Origin: Deltaproteobacteria bacterium
Lineage (GTDB): Bacteria > Desulfobacterota > Binatia > UBA9968
Assembly (NCBI GenBank): GCA_005879605.1
Contig: VBKE01000002.1
Location: 5,379 to 69,378 of the forward strand
Direction: 5' to 3'
Length of the DNA stretch: 64,000 nt
A program made the position numbers and the translations under genes. Numbering within the stretch: position 1 is the first letter of the stretch; each line of letters opens with the position of its first letter. Positions 1-59,836 of the stretch are shown piece after piece. The notes beneath the pieces are model-generated. The model had not been told where the DNA came from and searched no databases. It saw only the letters and a program-made list of their open reading frames with translations.

Positions 1-723
1 TACATGCGCAGCGTTGGGACAGAACCCAATCCGTTTTTGGGTTGGCGCTCCATCCGGATTTCACTTGAAGTGGAAGAGATCTTTAAAACACAGCTTCGAG
101 CGATTCTTCGTGCCGGGGATCTCGGGCGCGTGCGCTTGCTCCTGCCGATGGTATCGAGCCTTGAAGAAATAATCAAAGTAAAGGAACTTTTTGCGGAGGC
201 CAAAGAGGAACTTGGGCGAGAAGGAACTCCCTTTGACCGCCAAATGGAACTTGGGGTTATGGTGGAAGTTCCCGCCGCAGTCCAGTTGGCCGATCGGTTT
301 CTTCGTGAAGTGGATTTCATGAGCATTGGCACCAATGATCTGATCCAGTACATACTGGCCGTGGACAGAAGCAACCGCAAGGTCGCGAGTTTGTACGAAC
401 CGCTCCATCCGGCGGTTCTTGCTGCGCTTGCGTCAACGATCAAAGCCGGCAAACAGGTGGGCAAGCGCGTCGGGATGTGCGGCGAGATGGCCGGCGATCC
501 GCTCTGCGCTGTGCTCCTTTTGGGGATGGGGCTAGAAGAGTTCAGTATGGGCTCGCTCTATATACCGGTTATCAAAAAGACCATTCGGTCGATAACCTTC
601 CAAGCGGCCAAATCCATTGCCCAAATCGTTCTTCAAATGGATACGGTAGGCGAGATCAAACGATACCTTTTCGAGCAGATGCGGGAATTGGGGATGATCG
701 AGCTTCTTGAGATGTATCATTAA
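1..723 (+). CDS. PEP-utilizing enzyme (PTS enzyme I / PtsP type), C-terminal PEP-binding barrel; 5' end lies outside the window
   Basis: The frame is open from base 1. Motifs GWRSIR, MVEVPAA, SIGTNDLIQY and GMCGEMAGDP are typical of the enzyme I C-terminal domain. Confidence 0.8.
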   Translation, partial: YMRSVGTEPNPFLGWRSIRISLEVEEIFKTQLRAILRAGDLGRVRLLLPMVSSLEEIIKVKELFAEAKEELGREGTPFDRQMELGVMVEVPAAVQLADRFLREVDFMSIGTNDLIQYILAVDRSNRKVASLYEPLHPAVLAALASTIKAGKQVGKRVGMCGEMAGDPLCAVLLLGMGLEEFSMGSLYIPVIKKTIRSITFQAAKSIAQIVLQMDTVGEIKRYLFEQMRELGMIELLEMYH

Positions 724-847
724 CGGATACAGAAAAATCACGGGTATCTCGATCTACTTTCCTATCGGTGTTGATTTCTGTATCCCGAAGCGGTATAAAA
801 TCATTAGAACGATCGTTCGAACTAAATACCCACCGAAAGGGATTGGT

Positions 848-1954
848 ATGGCAAAAATTTCGACTTTTGATGATTGGATCGACTATTTTCGTCAGTGGCA
901 AAAAGACATTGGTTATGACCCGGCCGTGTTAGGGGATTACAAATTCGAAACGAAGCTAGGCGAGCTGCACTCTCCTGAAATAGAATTCGGAGATTTCAAA
1001 GGACAGCGCAAGTGGGAGCGCGTCGGCCAGATTCCTAACCAATCGATTCGTGACGCGCTCATGAATCTGATTGTCTATCAGGGCGACACGGAGTTTGCGT
1101 CAGTCGAACAGCAGAAGAACCTGCTCGAGACGGCCCCCACTGAATATGATCGCCAAGCTCTGACTCGTGTCAATAGCGAGGAAATGCGCCATGGCTGGCA
1201 AATGTGCTATCTCCTAGTTAACTACTTTGGAGATTCCGGAAAATTGGAGGCTCGAAAACTTTTGGAGCGAAGAGCCTTCAAAGGCGATCGGCTGCTGGGC
1301 TCGTTCAACGCGCCGGTTAACAACTGGCTCGATTTCTTCACCTACACTGAGTTTGTCGACCGGGATGGTAAATTTCAGCTGACGATGCTCAGCCATTCGT
1401 CTTTTGCCCCGTTGGCCGAGAGTGTGACCGCAATGCTCAAAGAAGAATTTTTTCATATGTTCACGGGTCACACCGGCTTGACGAGAATCCTTAGAGCGGG
1501 AAAGGTCCCGCTTCCCGTGATGCAGAAATATTTCAACAAATGGTTATCGACCGCATATGATTTGTTCGGCACGAATCATTCCTCGTCGGCGAACTGGGCT
1601 TATGTGTGGGGTTTGAAGGGAAGATTTGACGAACACGAGGCGAAGATCCCGGCAGACAAGGAAAAATTAAACGATTTAGCCCGCGATCATTATCTGGCTG
1701 AGGGCGCCAAGCTGATCGATCAGCTGAATCAGTTCATTCCGGAAGGACAACCAAAACTCTACGCGCCTGACCTGAAGTTTAACCGATCCATCGGCGAGCA
1801 CGTCGGCAAGCCCTACAGCGTTGCCGGCGAGCTTTTGTCGCCGGAAGCTTACAAAAAACACCTGACCGAGGTTCTACCTACGGCGGAAGATGAGCAATTG
1901 TTGAATGATCTTTTCAAAGAAAAAGATTGGGTCATACAGGTGCAGATGAACTAA
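848..1954 (+). CDS. Ferritin-like diiron oxygenase, BoxB/PaaA-like (benzoyl-CoA oxygenase component B-like), short form of about 368 aa
   Basis: ATG at 848 sits after AAAGGGA. QGDTEFASVEQQ, SEEMRHGWQM (ExxH), FVDRDGKFQL and MLKEEFFHMF (EExxH) match my recollection of BoxB. The ORF-track start at 707 looks like a spurious extension. Confidence 0.6.
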   Translation: MAKISTFDDWIDYFRQWQKDIGYDPAVLGDYKFETKLGELHSPEIEFGDFKGQRKWERVGQIPNQSIRDALMNLIVYQGDTEFASVEQQKNLLETAPTEYDRQALTRVNSEEMRHGWQMCYLLVNYFGDSGKLEARKLLERRAFKGDRLLGSFNAPVNNWLDFFTYTEFVDRDGKFQLTMLSHSSFAPLAESVTAMLKEEFFHMFTGHTGLTRILRAGKVPLPVMQKYFNKWLSTAYDLFGTNHSSSANWAYVWGLKGRFDEHEAKIPADKEKLNDLARDHYLAEGAKLIDQLNQFIPEGQPKLYAPDLKFNRSIGEHVGKPYSVAGELLSPEAYKKHLTEVLPTAEDEQLLNDLFKEKDWVIQVQMN

Positions 1955-2026
1955 GCAACGCGCGAGGTACCCTTGTCGCTACAAGACTTCCGCGGTAGAA
2001 AAAAATAAACGACTAAGGAGAGAGCA

Positions 2027-2350
2027 GTGAAACGCCTCTGTCTCGTCTGTCAAAACATCGACTGTAAAACTAGAGGCTCGGATAAACTCATGGCCGAGCT
2101 CGAGAAGAAAGTGGCAGCGAAAGGGCTAACCGACGTCGAAGTAAAACCCTACATGTGCTTTGGAGCCTGCCAAGAAGGACCCAACGTTGTCCTCTATCCT
2201 GAAAAGAGCTGGTATGCGGGCGTGAAAGCAGATGACCTCGACGAGATAACTGAGCATCTTGCCGGCGGGCCGCACGTCCAACGCCTCGATACGATTGATT
2301 CCTCTCTCAAGGAACTGATCTACCAGCTCCTTGATACGGGGGTGTTTTGA
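2027..2350 (+). CDS. Thioredoxin-like [2Fe-2S] ferredoxin (NuoE/HoxE-type fold)
   Basis: GTG start after AAGGAGAGAG. The Cys pattern is C-x4-C-x30-C-x3-C (CQNIDC ... CFGAC) followed by GPNV. Confidence 0.75.
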   Translation: MKRLCLVCQNIDCKTRGSDKLMAELEKKVAAKGLTDVEVKPYMCFGACQEGPNVVLYPEKSWYAGVKADDLDEITEHLAGGPHVQRLDTIDSSLKELIYQLLDTGVF

Positions 2351-2353
2351 TCG

Positions 2354-3613
2354 ATGGAAGGCATTCTTTTTCCCCGGGGCGTAGTAGCCGGACAGGAGGG
2401 CCTTGAGGAATACCGCGCGCGCGGCGGCTATGAGGCTCTCGTCAGAGCCGTCAAAACTACCCCAGAAGGGATCATCAAAGAAGTCTCGGATGCGGCTCTT
2501 CGCGGCCGAGGCGGAGCAGGCTTTCCCACCGGAAAGAAGTGGTCCTTCACGCGCGAACGTCCGGAACAGCCACGGTACATGGTGCTCAACGGCGGAGAGG
2601 ATGAACCAGGCAGCAAAAAAGATCGGCTGCTCATGGAAAATCTTCCCCATCTCGTCATCGAGGGCGTCATTATCGCCGCCTATGCCATCGGCGCAAACAA
2701 AGCCTACCTGTATGTAAACGCCAATTATGAAACCGCCATAAAGAGCACCACCGATGCTTTGGCGGAAGCAAAGGCCGCTGGCTACTGGGGAAAAGGTATT
2801 CTCGGCGATAGTTTTAACCTCGATATCGAACTCATACCTGCGCCGCACAACTACGTCGCCGGTGAGGATACGGCGGTACTCGAAGTGATCGAAGGCAAGA
2901 AAGCGTGGCCGCGCCAAAAGCCTCCGTTCCCGGTCACCGTCGGCCTTTTTGGAAAGCCGACAGCCGTAAACAATGTCGAGACTCTCGCCAACGTCGCCCC
3001 CATCATCTTACATGGCGCGAAATGGTACCGAAGTTTCGGTACGCCGGACAGCTCCGGTACCATGATTTTTTCCCTCAATGACGACGTCAATCGACCGGGA
3101 ATCTACGAGCTTCCTTTCGGCACGCCGCTCCGATACCTCATCGAAGAGTGCGGCGGTGGCATTAAAGGCGACAAAAAAATCAAAGCCATCATGCCGGCGG
3201 CGCCATCATCGGCCTATTTACCGGCGGATAAGATCGACACACCGCTGGATCACAATTCCATGCGAGAAGCGGGTTCCAGCCTGGGCTGTGGCGTCGTCCA
3301 CTTGGTGGGTGAAGGGACTTGCGTCGTCGAGGATGTTTTAAAAGCCTCCGAATTCTTCGCCGCCGAATCATGCGGTCAATGTCCTGCCTGCCGGATGGAA
3401 ACCAATACGCTGACCACCCTCCTGAAAAAACTCCAGCAAGGACAAGGGGGCCGGCCTATTCTTGAACAATTCGGAAAAGTGATCGCCTTCAACAAGGGAA
3501 AAGGGTTCTGCAATCTAATCGCTATGCCCGGTCCGCCCATCGAGAGCGCACTTAAACTCTTCCCCGGTGATTTTGAAGCGCACCTTGCCACGGGCAAGTG
3601 CCCGGTCAACTGA
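2354..3613 (+). CDS. NuoF/HoxF-like NAD(P)H-binding FMN, [4Fe-4S] flavoprotein
   Basis: GRGGAGFPTGKKW (FMN site), NGGEDEPGSKKDR (NADH site) and ESCGQCPACR plus a distal Cys ([4Fe-4S]). It starts 3 nt after the ferredoxin stop. Confidence 0.85.
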   Translation: MEGILFPRGVVAGQEGLEEYRARGGYEALVRAVKTTPEGIIKEVSDAALRGRGGAGFPTGKKWSFTRERPEQPRYMVLNGGEDEPGSKKDRLLMENLPHLVIEGVIIAAYAIGANKAYLYVNANYETAIKSTTDALAEAKAAGYWGKGILGDSFNLDIELIPAPHNYVAGEDTAVLEVIEGKKAWPRQKPPFPVTVGLFGKPTAVNNVETLANVAPIILHGAKWYRSFGTPDSSGTMIFSLNDDVNRPGIYELPFGTPLRYLIEECGGGIKGDKKIKAIMPAAPSSAYLPADKIDTPLDHNSMREAGSSLGCGVVHLVGEGTCVVEDVLKASEFFAAESCGQCPACRMETNTLTTLLKKLQQGQGGRPILEQFGKVIAFNKGKGFCNLIAMPGPPIESALKLFPGDFEAHLATGKCPVN

Positions 3614-3812
3614 TTTTTCGAAGCTTCCACAAACTGTTTCCGCAACGTCACGCTCACAGCGGCAATAAACTCTCTCCAAGCCTCTGCAAACTCCTTCTTC
3701 GATTCAAAGCAGCGGTCACGGTATTGATTGCTCCTCGGATCCGTTTCTTGAGTTGACGGTATTGAGCGGCCCTTGATAATATCCGCTTCGTTCCGCAAAC
3801 GGAGGTAGGATC

Positions 3813-4829
3813 ATGCGCGCTATTATGACGTGTCTCATGCTGGTCCTCGTCTTGGCGTTCGCCGCGCCGCCTTGCAAGTCTGCTACGAATGACGAGTCAT
3901 TCATAGAAGGGGCCAAGAAAGAAGGGACGCTGGTCCTCTATACATCCATGACCGTAGATCAGTCACAGAAAATTCTCGACGCCTTCAGAGCCAAGTATCC
4001 TTTCATCCAGCCCAAGATGTTTCGCGCAGTCGGCGAGAGACTGCTGACCAAAATCATGACTGAGGCACAAGCCGGCAAATACGATTTCGACGTGGTCCAA
4101 TCGGCCGAATCGCAAGCTTACTTTCTCAAAAAGAGAAATCTACTGCAAAAATATGTTTCGCCCGAAGCCAAGAACATTCAAAAACCCTTTTTCGATCCCG
4201 AAGGCTATTGGACAGCGGTTTACATCATGCCAAATGTGATCGGGTACAACACGCGCATGGTCAAGCGAACTGAAGTGCCCAAAACGGACGAGGATCTGTT
4301 GAACCCCAAGTGGAAGGGAAAAATGGGGATGGATAACACCAAACCGGAGTGGTTTGCATGGAAGCTTAAGCGAATGGGTGAGGAAAAAGGATTGGCTTAC
4401 ATGAGAAAGCTTGGCGCTCAAGAGTTTCGCCTTTACCCGGGGCTGACCGTTCTCACCGGTCTTTTGGCCGCCGGCGAGTTTCCCCTCGTGCTCAATACTT
4501 ATCTGCACAACGTTGAAGACATTAAGCGCAAAGGCGGTCCCGTGGAGTGGATCGCACAGGACCCAGTATTTACCAAATTTCAGCCGCTGGGAATTGGCTC
4601 TAAAGCCCCTCATCCTAATGCAGCCAAGCTTTTCACCGACTTCATGCTTTCTGAATACGGGCAAAAACTCATCGGCTCATTCGGGCGAGTGCCGACGCGC
4701 CGCGGCGTGCCGACCCACGTCCAAGGATTAGATAAACTGAATTACGTTATTGATGACATCAGCGCAGGAGATGATTTCAACAAGAACGCTGAGTTGTTTC
4801 GCTCAATCTTCGGCGCGTCTGGATCATAG
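3813..4829 (+). CDS. ABC transporter substrate-binding protein, family 1 (Fe3+/polyamine-type fold)
   Basis: Signal peptide, then LVLYTSMTVDQ..AFRAKYPFI..DVVQS and PKWKGKMGM. GGAGG RBS. Confidence 0.75.
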   Translation: MRAIMTCLMLVLVLAFAAPPCKSATNDESFIEGAKKEGTLVLYTSMTVDQSQKILDAFRAKYPFIQPKMFRAVGERLLTKIMTEAQAGKYDFDVVQSAESQAYFLKKRNLLQKYVSPEAKNIQKPFFDPEGYWTAVYIMPNVIGYNTRMVKRTEVPKTDEDLLNPKWKGKMGMDNTKPEWFAWKLKRMGEEKGLAYMRKLGAQEFRLYPGLTVLTGLLAAGEFPLVLNTYLHNVEDIKRKGGPVEWIAQDPVFTKFQPLGIGSKAPHPNAAKLFTDFMLSEYGQKLIGSFGRVPTRRGVPTHVQGLDKLNYVIDDISAGDDFNKNAELFRSIFGASGS

Positions 4830-4842
4830 AAAGGACCGAAAG

Positions 4843-5673
4843 ATGAGACCGGCGCCGATAAAATGGCCCAACGATGCCAAGATCGTCGTAAGCTTTTTCA
4901 TCGCATTCGAAGCGTTCAACAAATATTCACAATATCGTCGCGGCGGCGACAAGCCGGATTACGCCTCGCTCGCTTACGGGGAATACGGCGGCAAGGCTGG
5001 CATTTGGCGCATCATGGATGTTCTCGACCGAAACGGTGTTAAAGGCACCATAGACACCAACGGACGAGTTGCGGAAACTTTCCCTGATGCCGTAAAGGAG
5101 TTGCACAAAGCCGGCCACGAGATCGTCGGTCATGGGTGGGTGAACGATATCTATCTCACCTCCTTGGAACCTGAAGAAGAAAGAAAGAACATCAAGCAAA
5201 CTTTAGACGCGATTGCATCGGTAACGGGGAAACGCCCCGTGGGTTGGGTCAGTCCTGGTCACCGAATCAACGAGCATACGTTTGAATATTTGGTTGACGA
5301 AGGAATCTTCTGGAGCGGCGATTTGCCGGGTCCTGATATACCGGAGCACCGAATCATAAACGGCAAACCGCTGGTCATAATGCCGCGACTGGACTATGCC
5401 AACGATCACTCCCTAATTTTCCATCCGAAGAATCCCGCGCAGGTTTATTTTGAAAGTTTCAAGATAGCCTTCGATTACCTCTATGCGGAGGGTCAAGCGG
5501 GCTCGCCCAAGCTCATTGACGCTCTGGTCCACGCGCACATAGGTGGTAGACCGAACATCATCGGAGTCTTTGGAGAATGCATCCGCTACGCCAAAGGATT
5601 CAAAGATGTCTGGTTTTGCACCAAAGGCGAGATCGCCGAGTGGTATTTGGAGAATTACGTGAAGCGCAGTTAA
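4843..5673 (+). CDS. Polysaccharide deacetylase / PuuE-like divergent deacetylase family protein
   Basis: ATG at 4843. WPNDAKIVVSF..FEAF, YGGKAGIWRI.DVL and GHEIVGHGW. Paralog of 13851-14699. Confidence 0.75.
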   Translation: MRPAPIKWPNDAKIVVSFFIAFEAFNKYSQYRRGGDKPDYASLAYGEYGGKAGIWRIMDVLDRNGVKGTIDTNGRVAETFPDAVKELHKAGHEIVGHGWVNDIYLTSLEPEEERKNIKQTLDAIASVTGKRPVGWVSPGHRINEHTFEYLVDEGIFWSGDLPGPDIPEHRIINGKPLVIMPRLDYANDHSLIFHPKNPAQVYFESFKIAFDYLYAEGQAGSPKLIDALVHAHIGGRPNIIGVFGECIRYAKGFKDVWFCTKGEIAEWYLENYVKRS

Positions 5674-5842
5674 ACCAACGAGAGGAAAGGATGACCACTG
5701 GAACCGATTTTATAGATAAGTATCTAAGGACCTTTTCAAAAACGGATACTTCGACCGTCGAGCGGAGATTTTATAAATTCCGGATCATCATGGTAGAGAA
5801 AGCTCGTTAGCTCGCAGTCTCTATGCCACGGAGGGTGTATCG

Positions 5843-6931
5843 ATGATAGTGAAGAGAATAAAAACGGAGAGGCTTTCCCCCCTTCTCCTTGCACTTGCCC
5901 TCTCATTTTCAGTTTCGTCAAGCGACGCCGCCCAGAGCAAATCCTTGTCCTTGGCCGAACTGGCGCTTTACCAAGGAGCCGACCGCGAAAAAATACTTTT
6001 GGAAGGCGCGAAGAAGGAGGGGCAAGTCACTTTCTACACATCCAACACTTGGGTCGAGGGTCCTGTATCTAAAGAATTCGAGAAGAAATATCCCTTCGTC
6101 AAAGCCAACGTTTGGCGCAGCGACTCGAAATCATTGCTGAGGCGGTTAACCGAAGAGGTGGCTGCGGGGCGCTTTATTGCCGACGTCGTAGAGACCAGTC
6201 CGGAGTACATAACGATCCTGATGAGAAGCAACATGCTGCAAGAGTACTTATCTCCGGAACTCAGCGCGTACGGCGACGATGCAAAGGTAAAAGGCAAGGC
6301 CGGCGTCTATGCGTGGACCAACCGGGAGATCTATATTAGCCTGGGATTTAACACCAACCTTACACCCGCCGCAGAAGCACCAAAGAGCATCAAAGATTAT
6401 CTCGATCCTAAATGGAAGGGAAAGATGTCGATTGCCGGAACCACCACCGGCGTGCAGTGGGTGGGAGCCGTCATGGAGGCAATGGGACGCGAGTTTTTAG
6501 AAAAAGTAAGCGCCCAGGATATCAGCGTGCAAAACATGTCGGGCGCGGCGCTGTCGGGGCTGATCGCCTCGGGCGAAGTTCCCTTGTCGCCGACCATCTT
6601 CAATTCCAACATTTTTACCCATAAGCAACAGGGCGCCCCCGTCGAGTGGCGGCCGCTGGACCCTGTCATCGCCGGTGTCGGCACTTCGGGAATGGTCGTC
6701 AATTCACCTCATCCTCACGCCGCGCTGCTTTTTCTTGATTACCTCCATTCAAAATTCGGCCAGCAGGTTGCCATGAAGGGCGGTCTCAGCTCGGCGCGGA
6801 GCGATATCGGCTCTCTCGAACAAAAGTTCAAGAAGGTCTACATCGAGAGTAAATACACGCCGGAGGAATTCGATAAGAAGTTTAACGAATGGGAAAATCT
6901 GATGCGCCGGCTCTTTATCCAAAAGCGCTGA
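5843..6931 (+). CDS. ABC transporter substrate-binding protein, family 1
   Basis: Signal peptide, LYQGADREKILLEGAKKEG, KKYPFV, DPKWKGKMSIAG. Close paralog of 11339-12428. Confidence 0.75.
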   Translation: MIVKRIKTERLSPLLLALALSFSVSSSDAAQSKSLSLAELALYQGADREKILLEGAKKEGQVTFYTSNTWVEGPVSKEFEKKYPFVKANVWRSDSKSLLRRLTEEVAAGRFIADVVETSPEYITILMRSNMLQEYLSPELSAYGDDAKVKGKAGVYAWTNREIYISLGFNTNLTPAAEAPKSIKDYLDPKWKGKMSIAGTTTGVQWVGAVMEAMGREFLEKVSAQDISVQNMSGAALSGLIASGEVPLSPTIFNSNIFTHKQQGAPVEWRPLDPVIAGVGTSGMVVNSPHPHAALLFLDYLHSKFGQQVAMKGGLSSARSDIGSLEQKFKKVYIESKYTPEEFDKKFNEWENLMRRLFIQKR

Positions 6932-6953
6932 ACGACTTCAAACTAAGGCCGCC

Positions 6954-7952
6954 ATGACTTATGCAATCCTGATCACGGGTGCCAACGGGTTCATCGGTTC
7001 TCACACGACCCTCCTCATGGAATCCCTCGGCCACAATGTCATCCCCGTCGATGTCGTGCCGCGTTCAGCGGATCTTTCGCTGTTGGGAATCAAAACTCCT
7101 AGTCACATCATGGATGTCACCGACGGCGCGGCTTTCCGAGCGATCTGCGACAGAGAGAAGCCGACACATATATTTCACGCGGCGCATCCACCGCGCAACG
7201 AAACTCCCACGGTGTTGAACTACTGCTATCACGCAATGACTAACATTCTGGAAGCGGCCAAGGAATGCGGCATCAAGCGAGTTGTCTATTCGAGCTCCGC
7301 TTCGATCTACGGCCCGCTCAAAAAGCCGGACCGCAGTCTGGTCAAAGAGGATGACGCCGTGACAATCTATCCCACTTACTTTTATCGCGCAGCGAAAACC
7401 GTCTCGGAATGGATCGGCGACTTCTACAAGGAAAAGCACGGCGTAAACTTCATCGCTTTGAGATACTCGTCCGTTTATGGGCCCGGTCTCTATAGAAGCA
7501 TTCCCTTGGAACTAAAGAAAGGGATCCTCGGCCAACCCTGCCGGCCATTTCTCACCCGTCCGCTCGACGATCTGATCTACGTGGACGATGTCGTCGATGC
7601 CGTGCGCCGCGCCTTATTCGCCGACAAGCCGCTGAGCCGCGCCTACAATATCGGCCTCGACAAAGCCTACACTAGCGACGATTTGAAACGGGCAATTCGG
7701 AAAGCTCTGCCGGATCTTTCCTTTGAAATCGGCCAACACCCAAACGCCGCCGAAGTCAGCCCCCATCGCAACCGCGATCCGCTGGATATTTCCCTTGCTA
7801 AACGGGAACTGGACTGGGCTCCGAAGATCTATCTCGACGAAGGCATCGCGCGACTCGCGAAATGGTTGCAAGAGAACAAACCTAAACTACACATAACGGA
7901 CAGGTCACCGGAACGTATGCGGGGTGGCGATGGATTTGATGTATCGTTATAG
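6954..7952 (+). CDS. NAD-dependent epimerase/dehydratase (extended SDR)
   Basis: ITGANGFIGSH Rossmann motif and YxxxK (YRAAK). The last ~20 codons appear to read into a foreign gene remnant. Confidence 0.8.
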   Translation: MTYAILITGANGFIGSHTTLLMESLGHNVIPVDVVPRSADLSLLGIKTPSHIMDVTDGAAFRAICDREKPTHIFHAAHPPRNETPTVLNYCYHAMTNILEAAKECGIKRVVYSSSASIYGPLKKPDRSLVKEDDAVTIYPTYFYRAAKTVSEWIGDFYKEKHGVNFIALRYSSVYGPGLYRSIPLELKKGILGQPCRPFLTRPLDDLIYVDDVVDAVRRALFADKPLSRAYNIGLDKAYTSDDLKRAIRKALPDLSFEIGQHPNAAEVSPHRNRDPLDISLAKRELDWAPKIYLDEGIARLAKWLQENKPKLHITDRSPERMRGGDGFDVSL

Positions 7953-9606: not shown

Positions 9607-10757
9607 AGGGCCCCCAAAATTAGCGTTGCGTGCATGCACAAGCTGCCGCCGTGGCCGCTGACGATGCCGGTTTTGGCATTTTTCACTTGGCGCTCGGGTT
9701 CGACTTGGTTGCCGCGCAGCTGTCTCACCGCTTCGGTCACATGCAACATGCCTTCGATGTGCGCTTGCGACAACAGGCCGCCGTGAGTGTTGACCGGCAG
9801 CTCGCCGCCGACTTCGATGCGGCCGTTCTTGACGAAATCCTTGCCTTCGCCCTTTTGACAAAAGCCGTAATCTTCGAGCGTGATCATCGTCGTGATCGTG
9901 AAACAGTCGTAGATCTCGGCGAAGTCCATGTCCTTCGGCGTGAGGCCCGCCCTCTGGTACGCCAGCTCCGACGACTTCTCACCGCCGAGCGTTGTCAAGG
10001 TTGGCGCGTCCATCAAACTGAAGTGCGGATGATGCTGGCCCATGCCTAAAATGGCCACGGGCCGCTTGGGAAAATCACGGGCGCGCTCGGCGCTAGTGAC
10101 GAGAACCGCGCCGCCGCCGTCGGACTCCAGCGCGCAATCGAACAGGCGGAGCGGATCGACGATGAACCGCGATGCCTGGTGGTCGGCGATAGTCATCGGC
10201 TTGCGCATGGTGGCGTTTTGGTTCAAGCATGCATGCTTGCGCGTCGCCACCGCGACATGAGCGAGGTCTTCGCTGGTGGTGCCGAACTCGTACATGTGGC
10301 GCTGTGCGGCAAAAGCATGGTTGGCGACAGCGGAAAAGTGTCCCCACGGTTCTTCCCAGTGCTCATCGCCGTGGCGGATCGGATGGCCCGGCGTCGGATC
10401 GGGCGTGCCGCGCTTGCGCGCATGCACGCACATCACCGTGTTGGCCATCCCGGCTTCGATGGCCATCACCGCGTTTTGAACCATGGCGATGGGCGTCGCG
10501 CCGCCGAGGGCAAGATCCGTGGCGTAGTTGGGACGCATACGCGCCATGTTCGCCATCCTAACCGCGTAACTTCGATGCGCGTCGTTGAGCGGCTGGTTGG
10601 TGATGAACCCGTCCACGTCGGCCGCGGTGATACCGGCGTCGTCAAGGCAAGCTTTGATGCATTCTAAGTGGAGTGAATGGGTGCTGGCATCCGGACGCTT
10701 GCCGACTTTGGTTTCCGCGACACCGACGATGGCGTACTTGCCGCTGATGTTCGACAT
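9603..10757 (-). CDS. Thiolase-like protein (SCP-x / lipid-transfer type acetyl-CoA acetyltransferase family)
   Basis: ATG at 10757 after GGAGGA. KYAIVGVAETKVGK N-terminus, a thiolase-fold C-terminal NTHGG motif, and pairing with DUF35. Confidence 0.8.
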   Translation of the reverse strand: MSNISGKYAIVGVAETKVGKRPDASTHSLHLECIKACLDDAGITAADVDGFITNQPLNDAHRSYAVRMANMARMRPNYATDLALGGATPIAMVQNAVMAIEAGMANTVMCVHARKRGTPDPTPGHPIRHGDEHWEEPWGHFSAVANHAFAAQRHMYEFGTTSEDLAHVAVATRKHACLNQNATMRKPMTIADHQASRFIVDPLRLFDCALESDGGGAVLVTSAERARDFPKRPVAILGMGQHHPHFSLMDAPTLTTLGGEKSSELAYQRAGLTPKDMDFAEIYDCFTITTMITLEDYGFCQKGEGKDFVKNGRIEVGGELPVNTHGGLLSQAHIEGMLHVTEAVRQLRGNQVEPERQVKNAKTGIVSGHGGSLCMHATLILGAL

Positions 10758-10776
10758 AAAGTCCTCCGTAGCAGGA

Positions 10777-10858
10777 CTGGAGCAACTGGAGTGGTGGAGT
10801 AATGGAGTGATGCATTCAAAACCCGACACTCCAATACTCCCCATACTCCAACACTCCA
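10777..10858. repeat. Imperfect hairpin built from 8-nt-periodic TGGAGT units (left arm) and ACTCCA units (right arm)
   Basis: CTGGAGCAACTGGAGTGGTGGAGTAATGGAGTG, then a 17-nt loop, then CACTCCAATACTCCCCATACTCCAACACTCCA. It lies 20 nt upstream of the thiolase start. Confidence 0.6.
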
Positions 10859-11010
10859 TTTTCCTCTTGAACTCTCTTTATCCCATGACGCCAATCTTTC
10901 CAATATCCACCTCGCAACGGATCTCATCGTGTCAGGCGTTCCTATCACGTCCTTTTGGTATAGCTGTGGCGAAGATATTCTCGCGCCAAGACGCCAAGCA
11001 ATCATTCACA

Positions 11011-11150
11011 AAATCCGAAATCCGAAGCGCGAAACAAACCCAAAGAATTCAATGCCAATTGTGAAATCCGAAACGAGCTTGTTTGGAACTTTGTGCTCTT
11101 TTGATCATTTAGAATTGTTTCGCCTTTCGGATTTCGAGCTTCGAGTTTTC
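11011..11150. repeat. Long imperfect inverted repeat carrying CGAAATCCGAA motifs
   Basis: The left arm AAATCCGAAATCCGAAGCGCGAAACAA pairs with the reverse complement of GTTTCGCCTTTCGGATTTCGAGCTTCGAG. A third CGAAATCCGAAA-like copy sits at 11064. Confidence 0.55.
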
Positions 11151-11338
11151 TCCGCGTTTCTCCCGATCAACCGCGAGGGGCGATGGTTACCGCGCAGGAT
11201 AAATGCTGCTGAAACTCTACACTCGGCTTTCGAAGCCATTGAGCCTCTTCTTAGGTTGCCGTTTCAGTTTTGGATTGACAGGAATAGCCACAATTCATAG
11301 CATCCGGCTGTTTATAGATATGACAAGGGGAGGTAATC

Positions 11339-12428
11339 ATGTCCCTGTTCCCAGTTATTCGAAGAGCCGGTCTTCCGCTCAGCATCGCGATCTTAATTTT
11401 CGCCGCCACAAGCGCGCTTCCGGCGAGTGCGCCAATGTCGCCCGCACAGGCACAGTTAGCCCTCTACCAGGGAGCCGATCGGCAAAAAATTCTCATGGAG
11501 GGCGCCAAGAAGGAAGGCCAACTCGCTTTATACGATTCACATACCTGGTTTCGCACCTACGTCAAGGAGTTCGAGAAGAAGTATCCGTTCATCACGGTTT
11601 CCGAATGGCGCAGCGACTCGAAGAACCTGCTTAGCCGAGCGATGGCAGAGTTCAATTCGAGCCGTTCCTTGGTTGACGTGATTGAAACCACCGCCGAGGC
11701 TATGGGAGTCATGAAACGGGATGGCATGTTTCAAGAATATTTTACTCCGGAAGCGCGCCATTATCCCGATGATGTCAAATCAAAAGGAAAAACCGGGCTC
11801 TATTATCTCGGAGATCGCGAGACTTATAACAGCCTGGGATTCAATACAACGCTCATCTCACCGAACGAAGTCCCGAAGTCGCTCAAGGACCTGCTCGATC
11901 CAAAATGGAAAGGCAAGATGTCCATCGCCGGCACCTCCACGGGCGTCAGATGGGTCGGCAGCGTACTCGATACATTAGGCCGTGAGTTTCTGAACAAAAT
12001 GGCCGAACAGGAAGTAACGGTGCAAAATATGTCCGGCGCCGCCTTGGCGGGTTTGGTGGCATCGGGTGAGGTTCCGTTGTCGCCGACGATTTTCGACGCC
12101 GACGTGACCGTCGCAAGACAAAGGGGCGCTCCCATCGAATGGCGTCCGCTGGACCCGGTCGTCACCACGGTGGGGCTATTCCGGATTGTCATCCAAAGCC
12201 CCGCATCCGCACGCCGCGCTGCTTTTTCTCGATTATGTTCATGCTAGGGAAGGGCAGCAGCTGATGATGAAAGGCGGGCTCTGGTCTCCGCGCCAGGATA
12301 TCGGATCTCTGGAGCAAAAGTTCAAGAAAGTCTACCTAGACGGCAGGTACTCGCTCGAAGAAATCGAAAAGAAACTCGCAGAGTGGGAAAATCTCATGCA
12401 CCAACTTTTCGTCAGGAAACGGCTGTAG
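11339..12428 (+). pseudogene. Family-1 ABC substrate-binding protein, reading frame broken by +1 G in a G4 run (12172-12175)
   Basis: ORFs 11339-12247 and 12186-12428 together align colinearly with the 5843-6931 paralog (..LDPVVTTVG / YSGLSSKAPHPHAALLFLDY..). Confidence 0.75.
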
Positions 12429-12940: not shown

Positions 12941-13006
12941 AACTTTAGTTTCGAACAGGCCCTACAACACCTTGCGTACAGTCTCCATCACATAGTAAAG
13001 GAGGCA

Positions 13007-13549
13007 ATGCCCGACTATCGTCGTGCCTATGTTCCAGGAGGCACCTATTTCTTTACCGTGAAGACCTTCGATCGCCGGCCCCTTTTGATCGACGACCGTT
13101 GCCGCACTGTATTACGCAAAGCGATTGTTCAGGTCCGCGCAACGCTGCCGTTTGAAATCATTGCGTGGGTTCTGCTCCCTGACCATATCCACTCTGTTTG
13201 GCAATTATCCGAGGCCGACGCAGACTTCTCCCTGCGTTGGTCACTCATCAAACAACGCGTAACAAAGCAATGTATAGACCGGACCGGCGCATCGCGGATC
13301 ACCCCATCGCGAAAGAAACGACGCGAGGGAACGTTTTGGCAGCGGCGCTTTTGGGAGCACCTAATTCGGGATGAGACTGATCTCGAGCGTCACGTTGATT
13401 ACGTTCATTATAACCCTGTCAAGCATGGCTACGTCCGCCGAGTCGCCGACTGGCCATACTCAACGTTTCATCGTTATGTCAGCCGTGGCATGTATCCGTT
13501 GGATTGGGCATGTGGCGATGAATATTCAGACGACGACTTCGGCGAATGA
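13007..13549 (+). CDS. REP-associated tyrosine transposase (RAYT, IS200/IS605 Y1 HUH family)
   Basis: GGTYFFT, HUH motif PDHIHSVW, FWQRRFWEH, and the catalytic Tyr region VDYVHYNPVKHG. Confidence 0.85.
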   Translation: MPDYRRAYVPGGTYFFTVKTFDRRPLLIDDRCRTVLRKAIVQVRATLPFEIIAWVLLPDHIHSVWQLSEADADFSLRWSLIKQRVTKQCIDRTGASRITPSRKKRREGTFWQRRFWEHLIRDETDLERHVDYVHYNPVKHGYVRRVADWPYSTFHRYVSRGMYPLDWACGDEYSDDDFGE

Positions 13550-41359: not shown

Positions 41360-42364
41360 CTACTTCTCGTAAAGCTTTTTAATGAACCCGCTTTTGTCGA
41401 GCTCTTCGACGAAGCTCGAGTCCGCGAATTCTTCAGGTTTGTGCTTCCAGACGTCCGGGCGAGTGGCCGCGACGTATTCGAAACTAACTTTCATTCCCGC
41501 TAGATTCGGATAGGGCGTCGGTAAGAACATTTTGGAAAAAATGTCATAAGACTCGTTAATCAACTCGTCATCATCTATCCGCAGCGTCTTCTTGATCACT
41601 TTTATGCCGAAGTCACGATCCTTCTTGAAACGGGCGATGCCTTCGAGGTGCGCTTTCATATAATTCATGATCGTCTCGCGGTCGGCCTTGATATTCGCCC
41701 GACGCGTCGTGATTTCCATCCAGGGATAATCAAGCTCCTTCGCCGAGTCCCAGAGCATGGTGAAGCCCATTTTTTTGGCCCGACCGTATCCCGGGTGGGA
41801 CATCGCCGCCCCGTCTACAACGCCGCTTTTGAGCGCCACAATGCGATCAGAGTCGCTGCCGGTCTGGATTAGAGTCAAATCGCGGTCAGGATTGAGCCTT
41901 TTTTTCTTGGCAATGGCACGGACCAGGAAGTCCGTGAGGGAACCCAAGCTGGATACCGCGATCTTTTTCCCCTTCAAGTCCTCAACCCGTTTGATCTCAG
42001 GCTTCACCATCAGCGCGTGAACCACGCCGGGCATGGTGTGAGCCAAAATAACCATGTCCGAACCAGCTAGATCCGCGGCGATAACGGTCGGTGTCGCAAC
42101 CGGCACGATATCGAGATTTCCGCCGATCAGCGCCTTCGATGCGATGCCGGAGCCGTTGATCGCAATAACCTCGGCGTCGAGCCCATACTTCTCGTAAAGT
42201 CGCGCCTCTTTGGTGACATAAATGATAATGTTAGCAACGCTGACGGAAGGAACTCCGACGTGGATCTTTTTAAACGGCTTTCCTTGAGAGAAAGCCGAGA
42301 AAGGAAAGGCTAGCGACATAGAAAAAAAGATACCCAGAAAAAGCCTGACGCTTCGCGCCGCCAT
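41360..42364 (-). CDS. NMT1/THI5-like ABC substrate-binding protein
   Basis: ATG at 42364. Signal peptide, YEKYGLDAEVI, DLKGKKIAVS. Confidence 0.75.
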   Translation of the reverse strand: MAARSVRLFLGIFFSMSLAFPFSAFSQGKPFKKIHVGVPSVSVANIIIYVTKEARLYEKYGLDAEVIAINGSGIASKALIGGNLDIVPVATPTVIAADLAGSDMVILAHTMPGVVHALMVKPEIKRVEDLKGKKIAVSSLGSLTDFLVRAIAKKKRLNPDRDLTLIQTGSDSDRIVALKSGVVDGAAMSHPGYGRAKKMGFTMLWDSAKELDYPWMEITTRRANIKADRETIMNYMKAHLEGIARFKKDRDFGIKVIKKTLRIDDDELINESYDIFSKMFLPTPYPNLAGMKVSFEYVAATRPDVWKHKPEEFADSSFVEELDKSGFIKKLYEK

Positions 42365-42387
42365 ATCCTTATTCCCTCGCAATTCTA

Positions 42388-44307
42388 TCAAACTTTTCGC
42401 GTGCGCAGCTGCGCGATTCGAATCGCCGGGGTCCACGGTTTTTCCGCCCAGGCTGCGCCCGTTCGCCTGACCTCGGCGTCGATGAGATACGGCTTACCAT
42501 CCTGAGTGGCCCTGCGCGCTCGGGCGAGAGCCTCTTTGAGTTGCCCGGGGGATTCGACCTTTTCTCCTGAAACTCCGAACCCCCTCGCGATATCCGCCAT
42601 GTTCATGTTCGGATCGCCGAGATAATCGTGGAAGAACTTCCCGGTCGCGACCATCCGTCCATCGGGTACGTTTGCAATGGCACGGCTATGCGGGCCCGCG
42701 TATGCGTGATTATTGTAGACCACGGTGACTACCGGCAGCTCCAAGCGCGCCATGTTCCAGAGCGCCGTCGGGCCGAAAATGAAAGAACCGTCTCCGACTA
42801 AGCAAATCACCTGCTGGTTGGGTCGGGCCAGCTTCACCCCAGCCGCAGTTCCCACGCCGGAACCGAGGTGCGAACCGTAATAGAAAAACAGCTCGCGTCC
42901 ACCGATGGGGTTAAAGTCGAAACTGTGGAGTCCGATGGATCCGGCTTCATGAACGATGATGGCGTCCTTTTCCGCGAATTGCGCCACCTCGTAAGTCAGC
43001 CGGTCCGCCAGTAGTGGACTGTTGTTCCAGTCGGGGTTCTTTACCAACTGCGCTCTAAGCTTCTTATTGCGCTCTGTCGCTTTGCGGACTTCTTCGCTCC
43101 GTTCTTGCACCTTGGCTTTAATCGCCGGTGTCATCATGCCGTCTACCGCAACCATAAGATCGTCGAGGCCATAAGCGACGTCGGCAACCAACGGCGCCTC
43201 GGTGGTGATGACGTTTCCCATGCTCCAACTATCATTCCGTAAGTCGATGAACTTGACCTGGCGTGGAACCATGGGCGCAGTGCTGTTATGTTGGAGTTTG
43301 TTTCCGACGTTGATCACCACGTCCGGGGTTTTAGGAAAAGCGAGAGTGTCGATCCTGCCGCCGGGAAGCGCGCCGACCCACATGGGATGGCTCTCCGGAA
43401 AGCTGGCGAATATCTGTCTTGCCTGGGTCACGGACATGCCCAACATCTCCGCCAGCTTGACCGCTTTGCTCGCCGCCTTGGCTTTATAAACTTCATCACC
43501 GACAATCATCAGCGGAGTCTTCGCCTCAACGAGAACTTTGGCCGCCCGTTCGATTTCCTTGGGATTCGGTCTTACCCGCATGCGCGGATCGACTTTATCC
43601 TGCGTGATAATCTCGGTGCGGATCTTTGCCTGGTTAAAATCGGCATGCCATGAGGCGTAGGTGGGACCGTAGGGAGGCGTCCATGCCGCTTTAAAGGCGC
43701 GGCGCACCGTCTCAGGAAGCATTTCAGGGCGGCGGGCCAGCCAATAGTATTTGGCGAGCGGCGCAACGATCTGCTCCTGATTCGCCACTTCTTCGAAGCC
43801 GTCACGTCCTGCGGCGCCGCTTTGTTCCGACCGATAGCTATAGAAAACCAGCGGGGTCTGCTCCTTGAAAGCATTAAACATCTGCCCCATCGCGTTCATC
43901 AGACCGACGGAACCCGCCTGCATCACGATGGAGGGCTCCCCCGAAGCCTTCACGTAGCCCGCCGCCATGGCCGCGCCCGGACCTTCATGCGGAGTTAAAA
44001 TGTATTGAAGCTGCGACCGGTCAACGAGCGCATCATAAAACTCGGCATCCTCGCTGGCAGAGTTGCCAAAGACATACTGGACGCCCGAGGCGATCAACTG
44101 CTCCGCGAAAGCCGCCGCCGCGGTGCCTTGAAATATCTTCACTCCTTCCGGCCCGCCCCTGCGGACCTCTTGCGCCTGGGCAACCGCGGAGACGGAATCG
44201 AGTATGGACTGCGCGGCAGCGATGGACACGCCCGCAGTGGTCAGTCCTTTGAGAAAACCGCGTCGAGAAATCGATTCTGACAGGTACCGAGCGACTAATT
44301 CTCTCAT
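42388..44307 (-). CDS. ThDP-dependent enzyme (acetolactate synthase/PoxB superfamily) with N-terminal twin-arginine signal peptide
   Basis: ATG at 44307 after AAAGGAGG. SISRRGFLKG, a hydrophobic region and AVAQA; HEGPGAAMAAGY; GDGSFIF..x..VYNNHAY. Confidence 0.8.
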   Translation of the reverse strand: MRELVARYLSESISRRGFLKGLTTAGVSIAAAQSILDSVSAVAQAQEVRRGGPEGVKIFQGTAAAAFAEQLIASGVQYVFGNSASEDAEFYDALVDRSQLQYILTPHEGPGAAMAAGYVKASGEPSIVMQAGSVGLMNAMGQMFNAFKEQTPLVFYSYRSEQSGAAGRDGFEEVANQEQIVAPLAKYYWLARRPEMLPETVRRAFKAAWTPPYGPTYASWHADFNQAKIRTEIITQDKVDPRMRVRPNPKEIERAAKVLVEAKTPLMIVGDEVYKAKAASKAVKLAEMLGMSVTQARQIFASFPESHPMWVGALPGGRIDTLAFPKTPDVVINVGNKLQHNSTAPMVPRQVKFIDLRNDSWSMGNVITTEAPLVADVAYGLDDLMVAVDGMMTPAIKAKVQERSEEVRKATERNKKLRAQLVKNPDWNNSPLLADRLTYEVAQFAEKDAIIVHEAGSIGLHSFDFNPIGGRELFFYYGSHLGSGVGTAAGVKLARPNQQVICLVGDGSFIFGPTALWNMARLELPVVTVVYNNHAYAGPHSRAIANVPDGRMVATGKFFHDYLGDPNMNMADIARGFGVSGEKVESPGQLKEALARARRATQDGKPYLIDAEVRRTGAAWAEKPWTPAIRIAQLRTRKV

Positions 44308-55061: not shown

Positions 55062-56102
55062 TCATCTGATCACCTTATCCGCCATCGCCAGCATCTTTGG
55101 CGGCATCACGAGACCGATCTGCTTGGCGGTCTTCAAATTGACCGTGAAAATAAACTTGGTCGGATACTCAATAGGCAGCTCGGCTGGCTTTGCCCCTTTC
55201 AGAATCTTGTCCACGAAAATGGCGGCTCGGCGATACGAGTCCGTGAGATCTGCGCCAAATGACATAAGGCCCCCAGCCTCCACAAATTCCTTTGTTGGGT
55301 ATATTGCTGGCAGCCGACTCTCTGACGCCAGCTCGACGATGCGTGCTCGTTGACTCACGACCAGCGGGTCCAGCAGGGTCACGAGACCCATCCCGCGCTG
55401 CTTGGGTACGTTTTTGAACGCGGGGGCGAGATCCTCGCTGCGTCGCACCTCTAGGGACTGGACTGATAACTTCAACACCCGGACTGCGTCTTGCATTTCT
55501 CGGAAGGCAATCGCTGTCCCTGGATTGGCTGCATTCCAGAGGATGGCGATGCGAGAGAGCTTAGGGACGGCTTCCTTGAGCAATTCGAGCTGCTTCCCGC
55601 TGTAGTCCGGGGATGCGCTGCTCAAGCCCGTGACGTTACCGCCGGGTCGAGCGAGGCTCGCGACAAGCCCGAGCGCAACGGGATCTGCGCTGTGCACGAT
55701 AATGATTGGAATGGTTGCGGTCGCTTGTTTGGCAGCCTTGACCGCGGGCGTAGCGGCGGCGACTATGATGTCAACCCGGAGACGGATCAGGTCGGCCGCC
55801 AGCGCCGGTAGTCGCTCCTCCCTATCATCGTCAAACCGCTGCTCAAGAGCGATGTTCTTGCCCTCCACGTAGCCCCGCTCGCGCAGCCCCTGCTGGAAGG
55901 CTTCGAGCCGGGTCATGAGAGAGGTAGAAGTACCCTGCAATAGAAGACCAACGCGCGGCGCTTTCATCGGCTGCTGCGCCTCGGCCGACGAGAGAGTCGG
56001 CAGAAAGACAGTTAGCAGTAGGCAGGTAAGAGTCTGTTTGATGATCTGTTTTGCACCCGATTTCTTACTGCTAACTGCTTGCTGCTGTCTGCTCGCTGTC
56101 AT
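55062..56102 (-). CDS. ABC_sub_bind (COG2984) substrate-binding protein, B-type copy 1
   Basis: RVGLL.., FQQGLRERGYVEGKNI, SLARPGGNVTGLS, DKILKGAKPAELP, ADKVIR. The start ATG overlaps the upstream stop (ATGA). Confidence 0.8.
   Translation of the reverse strand: MTASRQQQAVSSKKSGAKQIIKQTLTCLLLTVFLPTLSSAEAQQPMKAPRVGLLLQGTSTSLMTRLEAFQQGLRERGYVEGKNIALEQRFDDDREERLPALAADLIRLRVDIIVAAATPAVKAAKQATATIPIIIVHSADPVALGLVASLARPGGNVTGLSSASPDYSGKQLELLKEAVPKLSRIAILWNAANPGTAIAFREMQDAVRVLKLSVQSLEVRRSEDLAPAFKNVPKQRGMGLVTLLDPLVVSQRARIVELASESRLPAIYPTKEFVEAGGLMSFGADLTDSYRRAAIFVDKILKGAKPAELPIEYPTKFIFTVNLKTAKQIGLVMPPKMLAMADKVIR
56065..56099. repeat. Five tandem heptamers TnnCTGC
   Basis: TTACTGC TAACTGC TTGCTGC TGTCTGC TCGCTGT sit immediately 3' (on the minus strand) of the coupled ATG. 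Confidence 0.6.
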
Positions 56103-57082: not shown

Positions 57083-57160
57083 CGAGTTTCTCCGCCAATC
57101 GAAAATCCAAAACCTGTGGTGAGCCCTTCGGCTGAACTCAGGATAAACTCCGTCGAACCA

Positions 57161-59184: not shown

Positions 59185-59218
59185 CGGTTTCTCCGCTTTC
59201 TATTGCAATCAAAATCCC

Positions 59219-59827: not shown

Positions 59828-59836
59828 GGCAACCTC

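Follow-up and report, generated by a model that had tools for sequence, protein, structure and literature searches.

A compact BoxB-like diiron oxygenase gene adjoining genes for a [2Fe-2S] ferredoxin and a NuoF/HydB-type flavoprotein in a Binatia genome

Results and discussion

Three adjacent genes on one strand

We have analysed a 64-kb stretch of contig VBKE01000002.1 (positions 5,379 to 69,378, forward strand; assembly GCA_005879605.1, Deltaproteobacteria bacterium, an uncultured soil bacterium of the class Binatia), referred to here as the window. Near its 5' end lie three consecutive genes, g1, g2 and g3, whose predicted products are a short homologue of BoxB (the oxygenase component acting on benzoyl-coenzyme A (CoA)), a [2Fe-2S] ferredoxin and a flavoprotein. 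By analogy with characterized oxygenases, we consider it on balance probable that the three genes act as one unit, a three-protein diiron oxygenase dependent on reduced nicotinamide adenine dinucleotide or its phosphate (NAD(P)H), with electrons passing from NAD(P)H to g3, from g3 to g2, and from g2 to g1. Proteins of the window were scored against Pfam and NCBIfam profiles and against sequences from the Protein Data Bank (PDB), giving the following assignments.

848-1954, + strand: g1, short BoxB-like diiron oxygenase of 368 amino acids (aa), from Pfam, NCBIfam and PDB matches and an AlphaFold 2 (AF2) model
1955-2026, + strand: g1-g2 spacer of 72 nucleotides (nt), with a Shine-Dalgarno-like AAGGAGAG at 2015-2022
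2027-2350, + strand: g2, thioredoxin-like [2Fe-2S] ferredoxin of 107 aa with a GTG start, from Pfam PF01257 and PDB matches
2354-3613, + strand: g3, NuoF/HydB-type flavoprotein of 419 aa, from the Pfam domains Complex1_51K, SLBB and NADH_4Fe-4S

The coordinates of these open reading frames agree with an earlier note on this DNA, which had described three genes on one strand, 72 nt and 3 nt apart. The genes g2 and g3 lie in the same frame, parted only by TGA and one codon (2348-2356). A terminator scan returned no terminator-like site between g1, g2 and g3, and a promoter-like site at 3753-3780 lies 5' of the gene that follows g3.

g1 is a compact relative of BoxB

The best NCBIfam match of g1 was BoxB (TIGR03225; 237.4 bits in three stretches, E 2.8e-70), as was its best PDB match (3PER, E 1e-52). 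It aligns collinearly along its entire length with a BoxB homologue of canonical length, 475 aa (38% identity over 362 columns), in comparison with which six deletions have removed 108 residues; the earlier note had put the difference at about 100 aa, and the motifs that it listed (QGDTEFASVEQQ, SEEMRHGWQM, FVDRDGKFQL, KEEFFHMF and WGLKGRFDE) are all found in g1. An AF2 model built from 58 homologues, with a mean predicted local distance difference test score (pLDDT) of 90.1 and a predicted TM-score (pTM) of 0.88, was aligned by Foldseek to BoxB with bound benzoyl-CoA (3PM5_A) at a query-normalized TM-score (TMq) of 0.89 and a root-mean-square deviation of 2.4 Å. Because of the end-to-end collinearity, the preserved iron ligands and the superposition of the model on BoxB, g1 is, as judged from sequence and model, a compact BoxB and no fragment. 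The second-best PDB match in both structure and sequence, SSO1313 of Sulfolobus solfataricus (4MUD, a structural-genomics 'ring oxidation complex' protein; E 1e-18, target-normalized TM-score (TMt) 0.81), differs in having 235 aa and the helical core only, and PaaA is only distantly related (E 1e-7 to 1e-10, TMq 0.55).

The status of BoxB as best family match, together with the source annotation (JGI, 'benzoyl-CoA 2,3-epoxidase subunit B'), would suit an ordinary Box pathway, with g1 as a normal orthologue of BoxB and its BoxA partner encoded at another locus. This is very unlikely, given that g1 scores 237 bits against an equivalog cut-off of 499.1 (less than half), that six deletions have removed 108 residues, and that the short forms make up a clade separate from BoxB of canonical length.

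Iron in BoxB is held by Glu120, Glu150, His153, Asp211, Glu240 and His243 (PMC5489048). Alignment to 3PER places the six equivalent residues of g1 as follows.

1091-1192, + strand: first iron half-site of g1, Glu82 (1091-1093), Glu112 (1181-1183) and His115 (1190-1192), equivalent to BoxB Glu120, Glu150 and His153
1358-1456, + strand: second iron half-site of g1, Asp171 (1358-1360), Glu200 (1445-1447) and His203 (1454-1456), equivalent to BoxB Asp211, Glu240 and His243

A family threshold and the metal ligands had been named beforehand as checks on g1. The Pfam PaaA_PaaC family (PF05138) matches residues 64-246 at 44.7 bits, above the cut-off of 28.5, and all six ligands align in a protein whose confident model superposes on BoxB. 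The ligands are invariant in all 74 short-form sequences that were grouped by clade. P0165, a 367-aa short-form homologue among the library representatives, retains just one of the six, and in one Binatia metagenome-assembled genome (MAG) a 266-aa paralogue of the PaaA_PaaC family directly follows the short BoxB gene (L062, 4950-5750). These two proteins may be PaaC-like structural partners.

The benzoyl-CoA ring in BoxB is oriented by Gln116, Thr119, Ser123, Phe193, Phe203/206 and Thr210 (PMC5489048). In BoxB numbering, Gln116, Thr119, Ser123 and Phe193 are kept without exception across the short-form clades and Phe203 nearly so, and in g1 and nearly all short forms Phe206 is replaced by Tyr and Thr210 by Val (or Ile in some). 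The pocket is nearly invariant across the short forms, with T115Y, P121F, L154G, F206Y, T210V/I and H242F as shared changes relative to BoxB. These pocket-lining changes, and the score below the BoxB equivalog cut-off, could indicate that g1 is no aryl-CoA epoxidase and instead acts on another acyl-CoA or a non-CoA substrate, or that it is a protective, rubrerythrin-like NADH oxidase for O2 or H2O2. Such a role would also fit the lack of catabolic context in the window and the presence, in other clades, of neighbours linked to oxidative damage (MutY, Mug and ferritin-like genes). It is nonetheless improbable in our view: the residues that position the benzoyl thioester in BoxB (Gln116, Thr119, Ser123, Phe193 and Phe203) are conserved, the whole BoxB fold is kept with its C-terminal part included, and enoyl-CoA hydratase, aldehyde dehydrogenase and 4-hydroxybenzoyl-CoA reductase genes recur as neighbours in several phyla.

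g2 and g3 resemble a split HydB-type flavoprotein

The cysteine pattern of g2 is Cys8-x4-Cys13-x30-Cys44-x3-Cys48 (codons at 2048, 2063, 2156 and 2168), so that the thioredoxin-like C-x4-C-x30-C-x3-C [2Fe-2S] signature described in the earlier note could be located in full. Its further description of g2 as NuoE-like did not stand. Against NuoE TIGR01958, g2 scored 33.8 bits, below the cut-off of 142.4, over profile positions 73-147 of 148, and against Pfam PF01257 (2Fe-2S_thioredx) it scored 33.2 bits (cut-off 24.8) over positions 68-144 of 145 only; the N-terminal helical domain of NuoE is missing and only the C-terminal, thioredoxin-like half of the profile is matched. The best NCBIfam matches were stand-alone 2Fe-2S ferredoxins, and the best PDB matches were the N-terminal [2Fe-2S] domain of HydB (7q4v_B residues 8-92, 1.7e-12) and Aquifex Fd4 (1f37, 7e-12). 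The N-terminal domain of HydB has cysteines aligned with all four of g2, and Aquifex Fd4 has them aligned with Cys13, Cys44 and Cys48.

The three Pfam domains of g3 scored above threshold (Complex1_51K 151.8, SLBB 34.1 and NADH_4Fe-4S 56.7 bits), and the flavin mononucleotide (FMN), NADH and [4Fe-4S] motifs of complex I subunit F that had been noticed in g3 were all located.

2504-2533, + strand: FMN loop GRGGAGFPTG of g3, at residue 51
From 2594, + strand: NADH motif GEDEPG of g3, at residue 81
3371-3391 and 3509-3511, + strand: [4Fe-4S] motif of g3, C340-x2-C343-x2-C346 (3371-3391) followed after x39 by C386 (3509-3511)

A NuoF-like character is borne out at the level of superfamily domains and motifs. 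It does not extend to NuoF proper: g3 reached 424.2 bits against TIGR01959, below the equivalog cut-off of 558.65, and no nuo genes and no NuoE/HydC or NuoG/HydA partners are found near it. The full length of g3 aligns with residues 127-531 of the 602-aa NfnB (9n5u_B, 4.9e-103) and also with the cores of Aquifex NuoF, HydB and HoxF (PDB; E 1e-97 to 5e-103). Its C terminus coincides with that of the NuoF core, and the C-terminal 2x[4Fe-4S] domain found in HydB and NfnB is missing.

Among the matches listed in a search of genomes, g3 relatives of 62-86% identity all occurred in the same gene arrangement, and the next-best relatives were HydB-type proteins of anaerobes (Clostridia, Thermotogae and others) at 40-44% identity. 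In many of the latter the NuoF core is preceded, at a distance of about 100 nt, by a g2-like segment; L102, the sole locus checked for frame, has this segment (5677-5913) in frame with the core (6001-7218). Because a g2-like segment precedes the NuoF core in these outside relatives, g2 and g3 together look like a split, C-terminally shortened flavoprotein of the HydB/NfnB type rather than NuoE plus NuoF, and hydrogenases/diaphorases, not complex I itself, look to be the source of the module. The earlier suggestion that the oxygenase borrowed an NADH-input module is supported as far as the borrowing goes, with HydB-type hydrogenase/diaphorase rather than complex I as the apparent origin. The reading of g2 and g3 as one gene joined by TGA read-through was rejected; the split is taken to be real because the two genes lie in different frames in several other g1-g2-g3 triads.

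Short BoxB forms are widespread in soil-phylum MAGs

A word-indexed protein search with g1 returned 5,653 proteins at E <= 0.001, the best 120 of which all have 366-388 aa; short forms bear the source names 'benzoyl-CoA 2,3-epoxidase subunit B' or 'Phenylacetic acid catabolic protein'. In a 50%-identity library the full-length short forms fall into a few clusters (63, 54, 45, 43 and 35% identity), separate from canonical proteins of 465-495 aa. Species-representative genomes hold at least 593 loci with the gene, and the best 80 were examined. All relatives are metagenome-assembled, and taxon counts are approximate. The MAGs with short BoxB are labelled Binatia, Acidobacteriota (Terriglobia, Thermoanaerobaculia and Acidoferrales), Chloroflexota, Planctomycetota, Zixibacteria and one Thermoplasmatota archaeon. 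Some triad loci at 82-89% identity are labelled Udaeobacter, Verrucomicrobiia, Limnocylindrales or Eisenbacteria, which suggests mis-binning or recent transfer. The locus of P0134, a deep-branching short form from Zixibacteria, was uninformative.

Taken at the sequence level, g1 is a member of a large, uncharacterized clade of short BoxB proteins, most other members of which occur without this reductase. The literature that we searched describes neither the short-BoxB clade nor any diiron oxygenase with a reductase of the NuoF type.

The triad is kept where its flanks are replaced

Synteny was assessed by tblastn of the window proteins on the best 80 loci, and neighbours were counted from gene calls filtered on third-position GC content. 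Of the 29 loci whose g1 is 72-91% identical to that of the window, 28 have the order g1-g2-g3, with g2 71-92% and g3 62-84% identical to the window proteins; the remaining locus, L026, reaches its contig end just after g2. The order also holds in further loci anchored on g3, giving about 35 sampled genomes with the triad overall. Carriers of the triad include the complete Binatia chromosomes OZ244617.1, OZ244869.1, OY282432.1 and OZ219754.1. Synteny in relatives had been set in advance as a check on the triad, and it is conserved in every close relative sampled. The short distance between g2 and g3 recurs in other triads. Upstream PtsP, the neighbour of g1 in the window, is kept only in the shallower half of the triad clade (L001-L019). 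In the deeper branches TctC/TctA-B and a luciferase-like gene lie upstream and a Leu/Phe-tRNA protein transferase gene lies downstream. Because the order persists where both flanks are replaced, the triad appears to be a kept unit.

A neighbour-joining tree placed every triad copy in one clade, with L068, L069 and L073 as its sister group. In L068 the short BoxB gene is followed directly by a gene for a 111-aa thioredoxin-like ferredoxin, with unrelated genes on both sides; in L069 a ferredoxin gene lies upstream of short BoxB on the opposite strand; and in L073 frame-shifted ferredoxin and NuoF-type fragments (10750-11813) lie about 1.7 kb downstream of short BoxB and are followed by two aldehyde dehydrogenase genes. 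The L073 remnants are either a pseudogene or an assembly error. Both the L068 pair and the L073 remnants fit the ferredoxin as a direct partner of short BoxB. Two of these loci also carry, convergently and right after short BoxB, a gene for a CCG-domain and 4Fe-4S dicluster protein resembling HdrD/GlpC (L069 3164-4618 and L073 9031-10407, both on the minus strand).

A different account of the same arrangement is that g2 and g3 make up a soluble NAD(P)H:ferredoxin oxidoreductase that works independently of g1 for another client, their proximity to g1 being linkage inherited within one lineage. It draws on a Binatia locus (L096) that keeps g2-g3 without g1, on the absence of the module beside most short BoxB genes, and on the confinement of all triads to one clade, which makes the synteny roughly one evolutionary event plus retention. 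We judge this account unlikely, since the triad survives replacement of both flanks and has short gaps (72 and 3 nt in the window), since no member of the g3 lineage was seen outside a triad among the matches listed, and since the sister clade has, in L068, an independent pair of short BoxB and ferredoxin genes.

Neighbouring genes point to an aryl-CoA substrate

Outside the triad clade the commonest informative neighbour of short BoxB is an enoyl-CoA hydratase gene, found at 16 non-Binatia loci and directly adjacent in most of them. These loci come from Terriglobia, Acidoferrales, a Chloroflexi MAG and others, and a Planctomycetota MAG has the order hydratase, aldehyde dehydrogenase, short BoxB. 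The conserved cluster in Terriglobia begins with TetR, hydratase, aldehyde dehydrogenase, Mug-type glycosylase, hydratase and short BoxB genes, continues with (CoA-transferase A, hydratase, CoA-transferase B), rhodanese and three xanthine dehydrogenase-family subunits in the order gamma, alpha, beta, and ends with Amidohydro_2 and 3-hydroxyacyl-CoA dehydrogenase genes. The large xanthine dehydrogenase-family subunit scored 1006 bits against the alpha subunit of 4-hydroxybenzoyl-CoA reductase (TIGR03194), above the cut-off of 994.6; the same enzyme is the best match of the beta subunit and a virtual joint-best match of the gamma subunit, both below cut-off. 4-Hydroxybenzoyl-CoA reductase makes benzoyl-CoA. 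Because of these reductase neighbours and the conserved benzoyl-binding residues, the substrate of the clade is most likely benzoyl-CoA or a close aryl-CoA, as far as sequence can indicate, and the CoA-thioester substrate that the earlier note had guessed gains support from the Acidobacteriota gene clusters. According to a preprint, Binatota MAGs are particularly rich in benzoyl-CoA pathway genes, those for 4-hydroxybenzoyl-CoA reductase among them.

On the upstream side of the Terriglobia short BoxB, the adjacent hydratase finds its best family match in PaaG, at 235 bits and so below the cut-off of 345; the adjacent hydratase on the downstream side comes nearest to cyclohexa-1,5-dienecarbonyl-CoA hydratase, also below cut-off. 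The two were considered as a split BoxC, a reading that we reject, since they match generic crotonases, PaaG, PaaF and dienoyl-CoA hydratase best and BoxC is absent from their top 60 PDB matches. The conserved neighbour clusters and the annotated related loci contain no BoxA-like gene, and the annotated loci no BoxC. These results tell further against a plain BoxB orthologue working in an ordinary Box pathway. Relatives of a second Binatia paralogue of short BoxB had no conserved hydratase or PaaC-like neighbour.

DNA glycosylase genes were also seen beside short BoxB. In 11 loci of the Thermoanaerobaculia type the next gene downstream, on the same strand, is MutY, and a Mug/UDG-family gene lies inside the Terriglobia hydratase-aldehyde dehydrogenase cluster, so that such neighbours occur in two clades (L035-L066 and others, e.g. 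L063 9123-10220; L033 6157-6705; L164 7587-8099). L033 has a ferritin-like gene (6727-7146) besides the glycosylase gene.

Proposed mechanism and evidence against it

In the three-protein oxygenase that we propose, g3 would bind NAD(P)H and take up hydride onto FMN. Single electrons would then move from FMN to the [4Fe-4S] cluster of g3 and on to g2, acting as a free [2Fe-2S] ferredoxin, which would dock on g1 and reduce its diferric site. Diferrous g1 would bind O2 and epoxidize the ring of an aryl-CoA as BoxB does, with benzoyl-CoA or a close aryl-CoA as the most likely substrate. The order of transfer and the chemistry are modelled on BoxAB (PMC5489048, PMC4498308) and on ferredoxin-dependent diiron monooxygenases in general. 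The relations of sequence and fold, the intact cofactor motifs, the synteny and, among the matches listed, the restriction of the g3 lineage to triads are results of direct analysis. What we predict are the direction and order of electron transfer, the contacts between the proteins, which of NADH and NADPH is used, the substrate, and the formation of an epoxide.

Several results weigh against this proposal. The score of g1 against TIGR03225 falls far short of the BoxB equivalog cut-off. Among short forms, the triad clade alone has Asn147 and mostly Phe241 beside the iron ligands. The substrate assignment for the triad copy is indirect, being borrowed from paralogues of 60-66% identity, as no downstream pathway genes were found in the annotated parts of the window itself. 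Two MAGs, DATJFG01 (L013/L173) and JBGPGE01 (L014/L062), each carry a triad-type copy plus a stand-alone short BoxB of the 59-63% identity type, which implies paralogues that possibly differ in role or substrate. Most of the best 80 loci (51) have no ferredoxin or NuoF-type gene adjacent to short BoxB, and at 48 none lies nearby, so the oxygenase does not need this particular reductase. In L096, g1 has been reduced to its last ~20 codons (~5540-5620), with a minus-strand gene in place of the deleted part, and g2-g3 are intact (5672-7221); the module may thus have another client as well. Relatives of g3, lastly, were searched for by pattern, and intermediates between triad and HydB-type proteins may be missed among the matches listed.

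Comparison with known systems

BoxAB of Azoarcus evansii (3PER/3PM5) has in common with g1 the whole fold, the six iron ligands and Gln116, Thr119, Ser123, Phe193 and Phe203, and with the relatives of g1 the placement in clusters for CoA-ester catabolism. BoxA is an NADPH reductase containing flavin adenine dinucleotide (FAD) and 2x[4Fe-4S] (PMC4498308). In the triad, by contrast, a [2Fe-2S] ferredoxin and an FMN/[4Fe-4S] protein of the NuoF type are the candidate donors, and neither BoxA nor BoxC was found in the annotated parts of the window or in the annotated related loci. The phenylacetyl-CoA 1,2-epoxidase (PaaABC(D)E) shares Pfam PF05138 with g1, and a PaaG-like hydratase occurs in the Terriglobia cluster; its reductase, PaaE, is of the class IA type, unlike g2-g3.

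The FMN/NADH/[4Fe-4S] core of HydB, NfnB, HoxF and NuoF is shared with g3, and the N-terminal [2Fe-2S] domain of HydB with g2. HydB and NfnB differ in being single chains with a C-terminal 2x[4Fe-4S] domain and HydC/HydA partners, whereas g2 and g3 are two genes, and the nearest HydB-type proteins among the matches listed are only 40-44% identical to g3. In strict anaerobes, the class II benzoyl-CoA reductase has NuoEFG-like partner subunits, BamGHI, which may offer a useful comparison.

In four-component systems of the toluene 4-monooxygenase type, an NADH reductase passes electrons to a soluble [2Fe-2S] ferredoxin and thence to a diiron hydroxylase, the same logic of electron flow that we propose for the triad. 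In such systems the reductase has FAD and a plant-type [2Fe-2S] cluster, the ferredoxin is of the Rieske type and an effector protein is required, and the triad contains none of these.

Remainder of the window

One gene lies directly upstream of the triad in the window.

4-723: 3' end of the gene for a GAF-domain PtsP (nitrogen-PTS enzyme I-like; 799 aa), ~125 nt upstream of g1

Downstream of the triad are genes for solute-binding proteins, a gene of the polysaccharide deacetylase family, an epimerase gene, an AAA ATPase gene and a ChsH2-OB/thiolase pair. Pfam annotation extends over most of the window, ~1-49.2 kb and ~51.5-64 kb, and within these parts there was no gene for an enoyl-CoA hydratase, aldehyde dehydrogenase, CoA ligase or BoxA-like protein; the absence of BoxA, BoxC and a CoA ligase that the earlier note had remarked on holds over the same parts. 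PaaB, PaaC, PaaD and PaaE are likewise absent from the window, and no Rfam RNA family matched positions 1-6000.

Genes for binding proteins (NMT1, SBP_bac_5/6/8/11), amidohydrolases and thiamine pyrophosphate enzymes are unusually numerous across the window. A look-up of the gene at 41360-42436 gave no result. Five tandem solute-binding paralogues of PF04392 (ABC_sub_bind), with a TENA/THI-4 gene among them, occupy ~55062-60475 on the minus strand. A weak Pfam match to an IS200-like Y1 transposase was obtained for an open reading frame at ~12996-13538 (+ strand), between a solute-binding gene and a deacetylase gene.

Conclusions

Aerobic hybrid routes through aryl-CoA epoxides are known in two forms, Box and Paa, each with its own type of reductase. 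We tentatively suggest, as a possibility that falls somewhat short of even, that the HydB/NuoF-derived g3 with its freed ferredoxin g2 represents an unrecognized class of diiron oxygenase reductase and that the short BoxB proteins mark a third CoA-epoxide route beside these two. The clade comprises thousands of metagenomic sequences from dominant soil phyla, one lineage of which has the proposed dedicated FMN/[4Fe-4S] and [2Fe-2S] electron supply. The three triad genes are small and code for soluble proteins, which makes the proposal directly testable. If it is true, a new kind of oxygenase reductase would have been built from the NADH-input module of hydrogenases and complex I, and the blanket annotation of these proteins as 'benzoyl-CoA 2,3-epoxidase subunit B' or 'phenylacetic acid catabolic protein' would be mended. 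The third route would employ PaaG-like hydratases in place of BoxC and be fed by 4-hydroxybenzoyl-CoA reductase in Acidobacteriota and Binatia, soil groups that are abundant but for the most part uncultured, and it would provide a handle on the use of lignin-derived aromatics by these bacteria at low oxygen.

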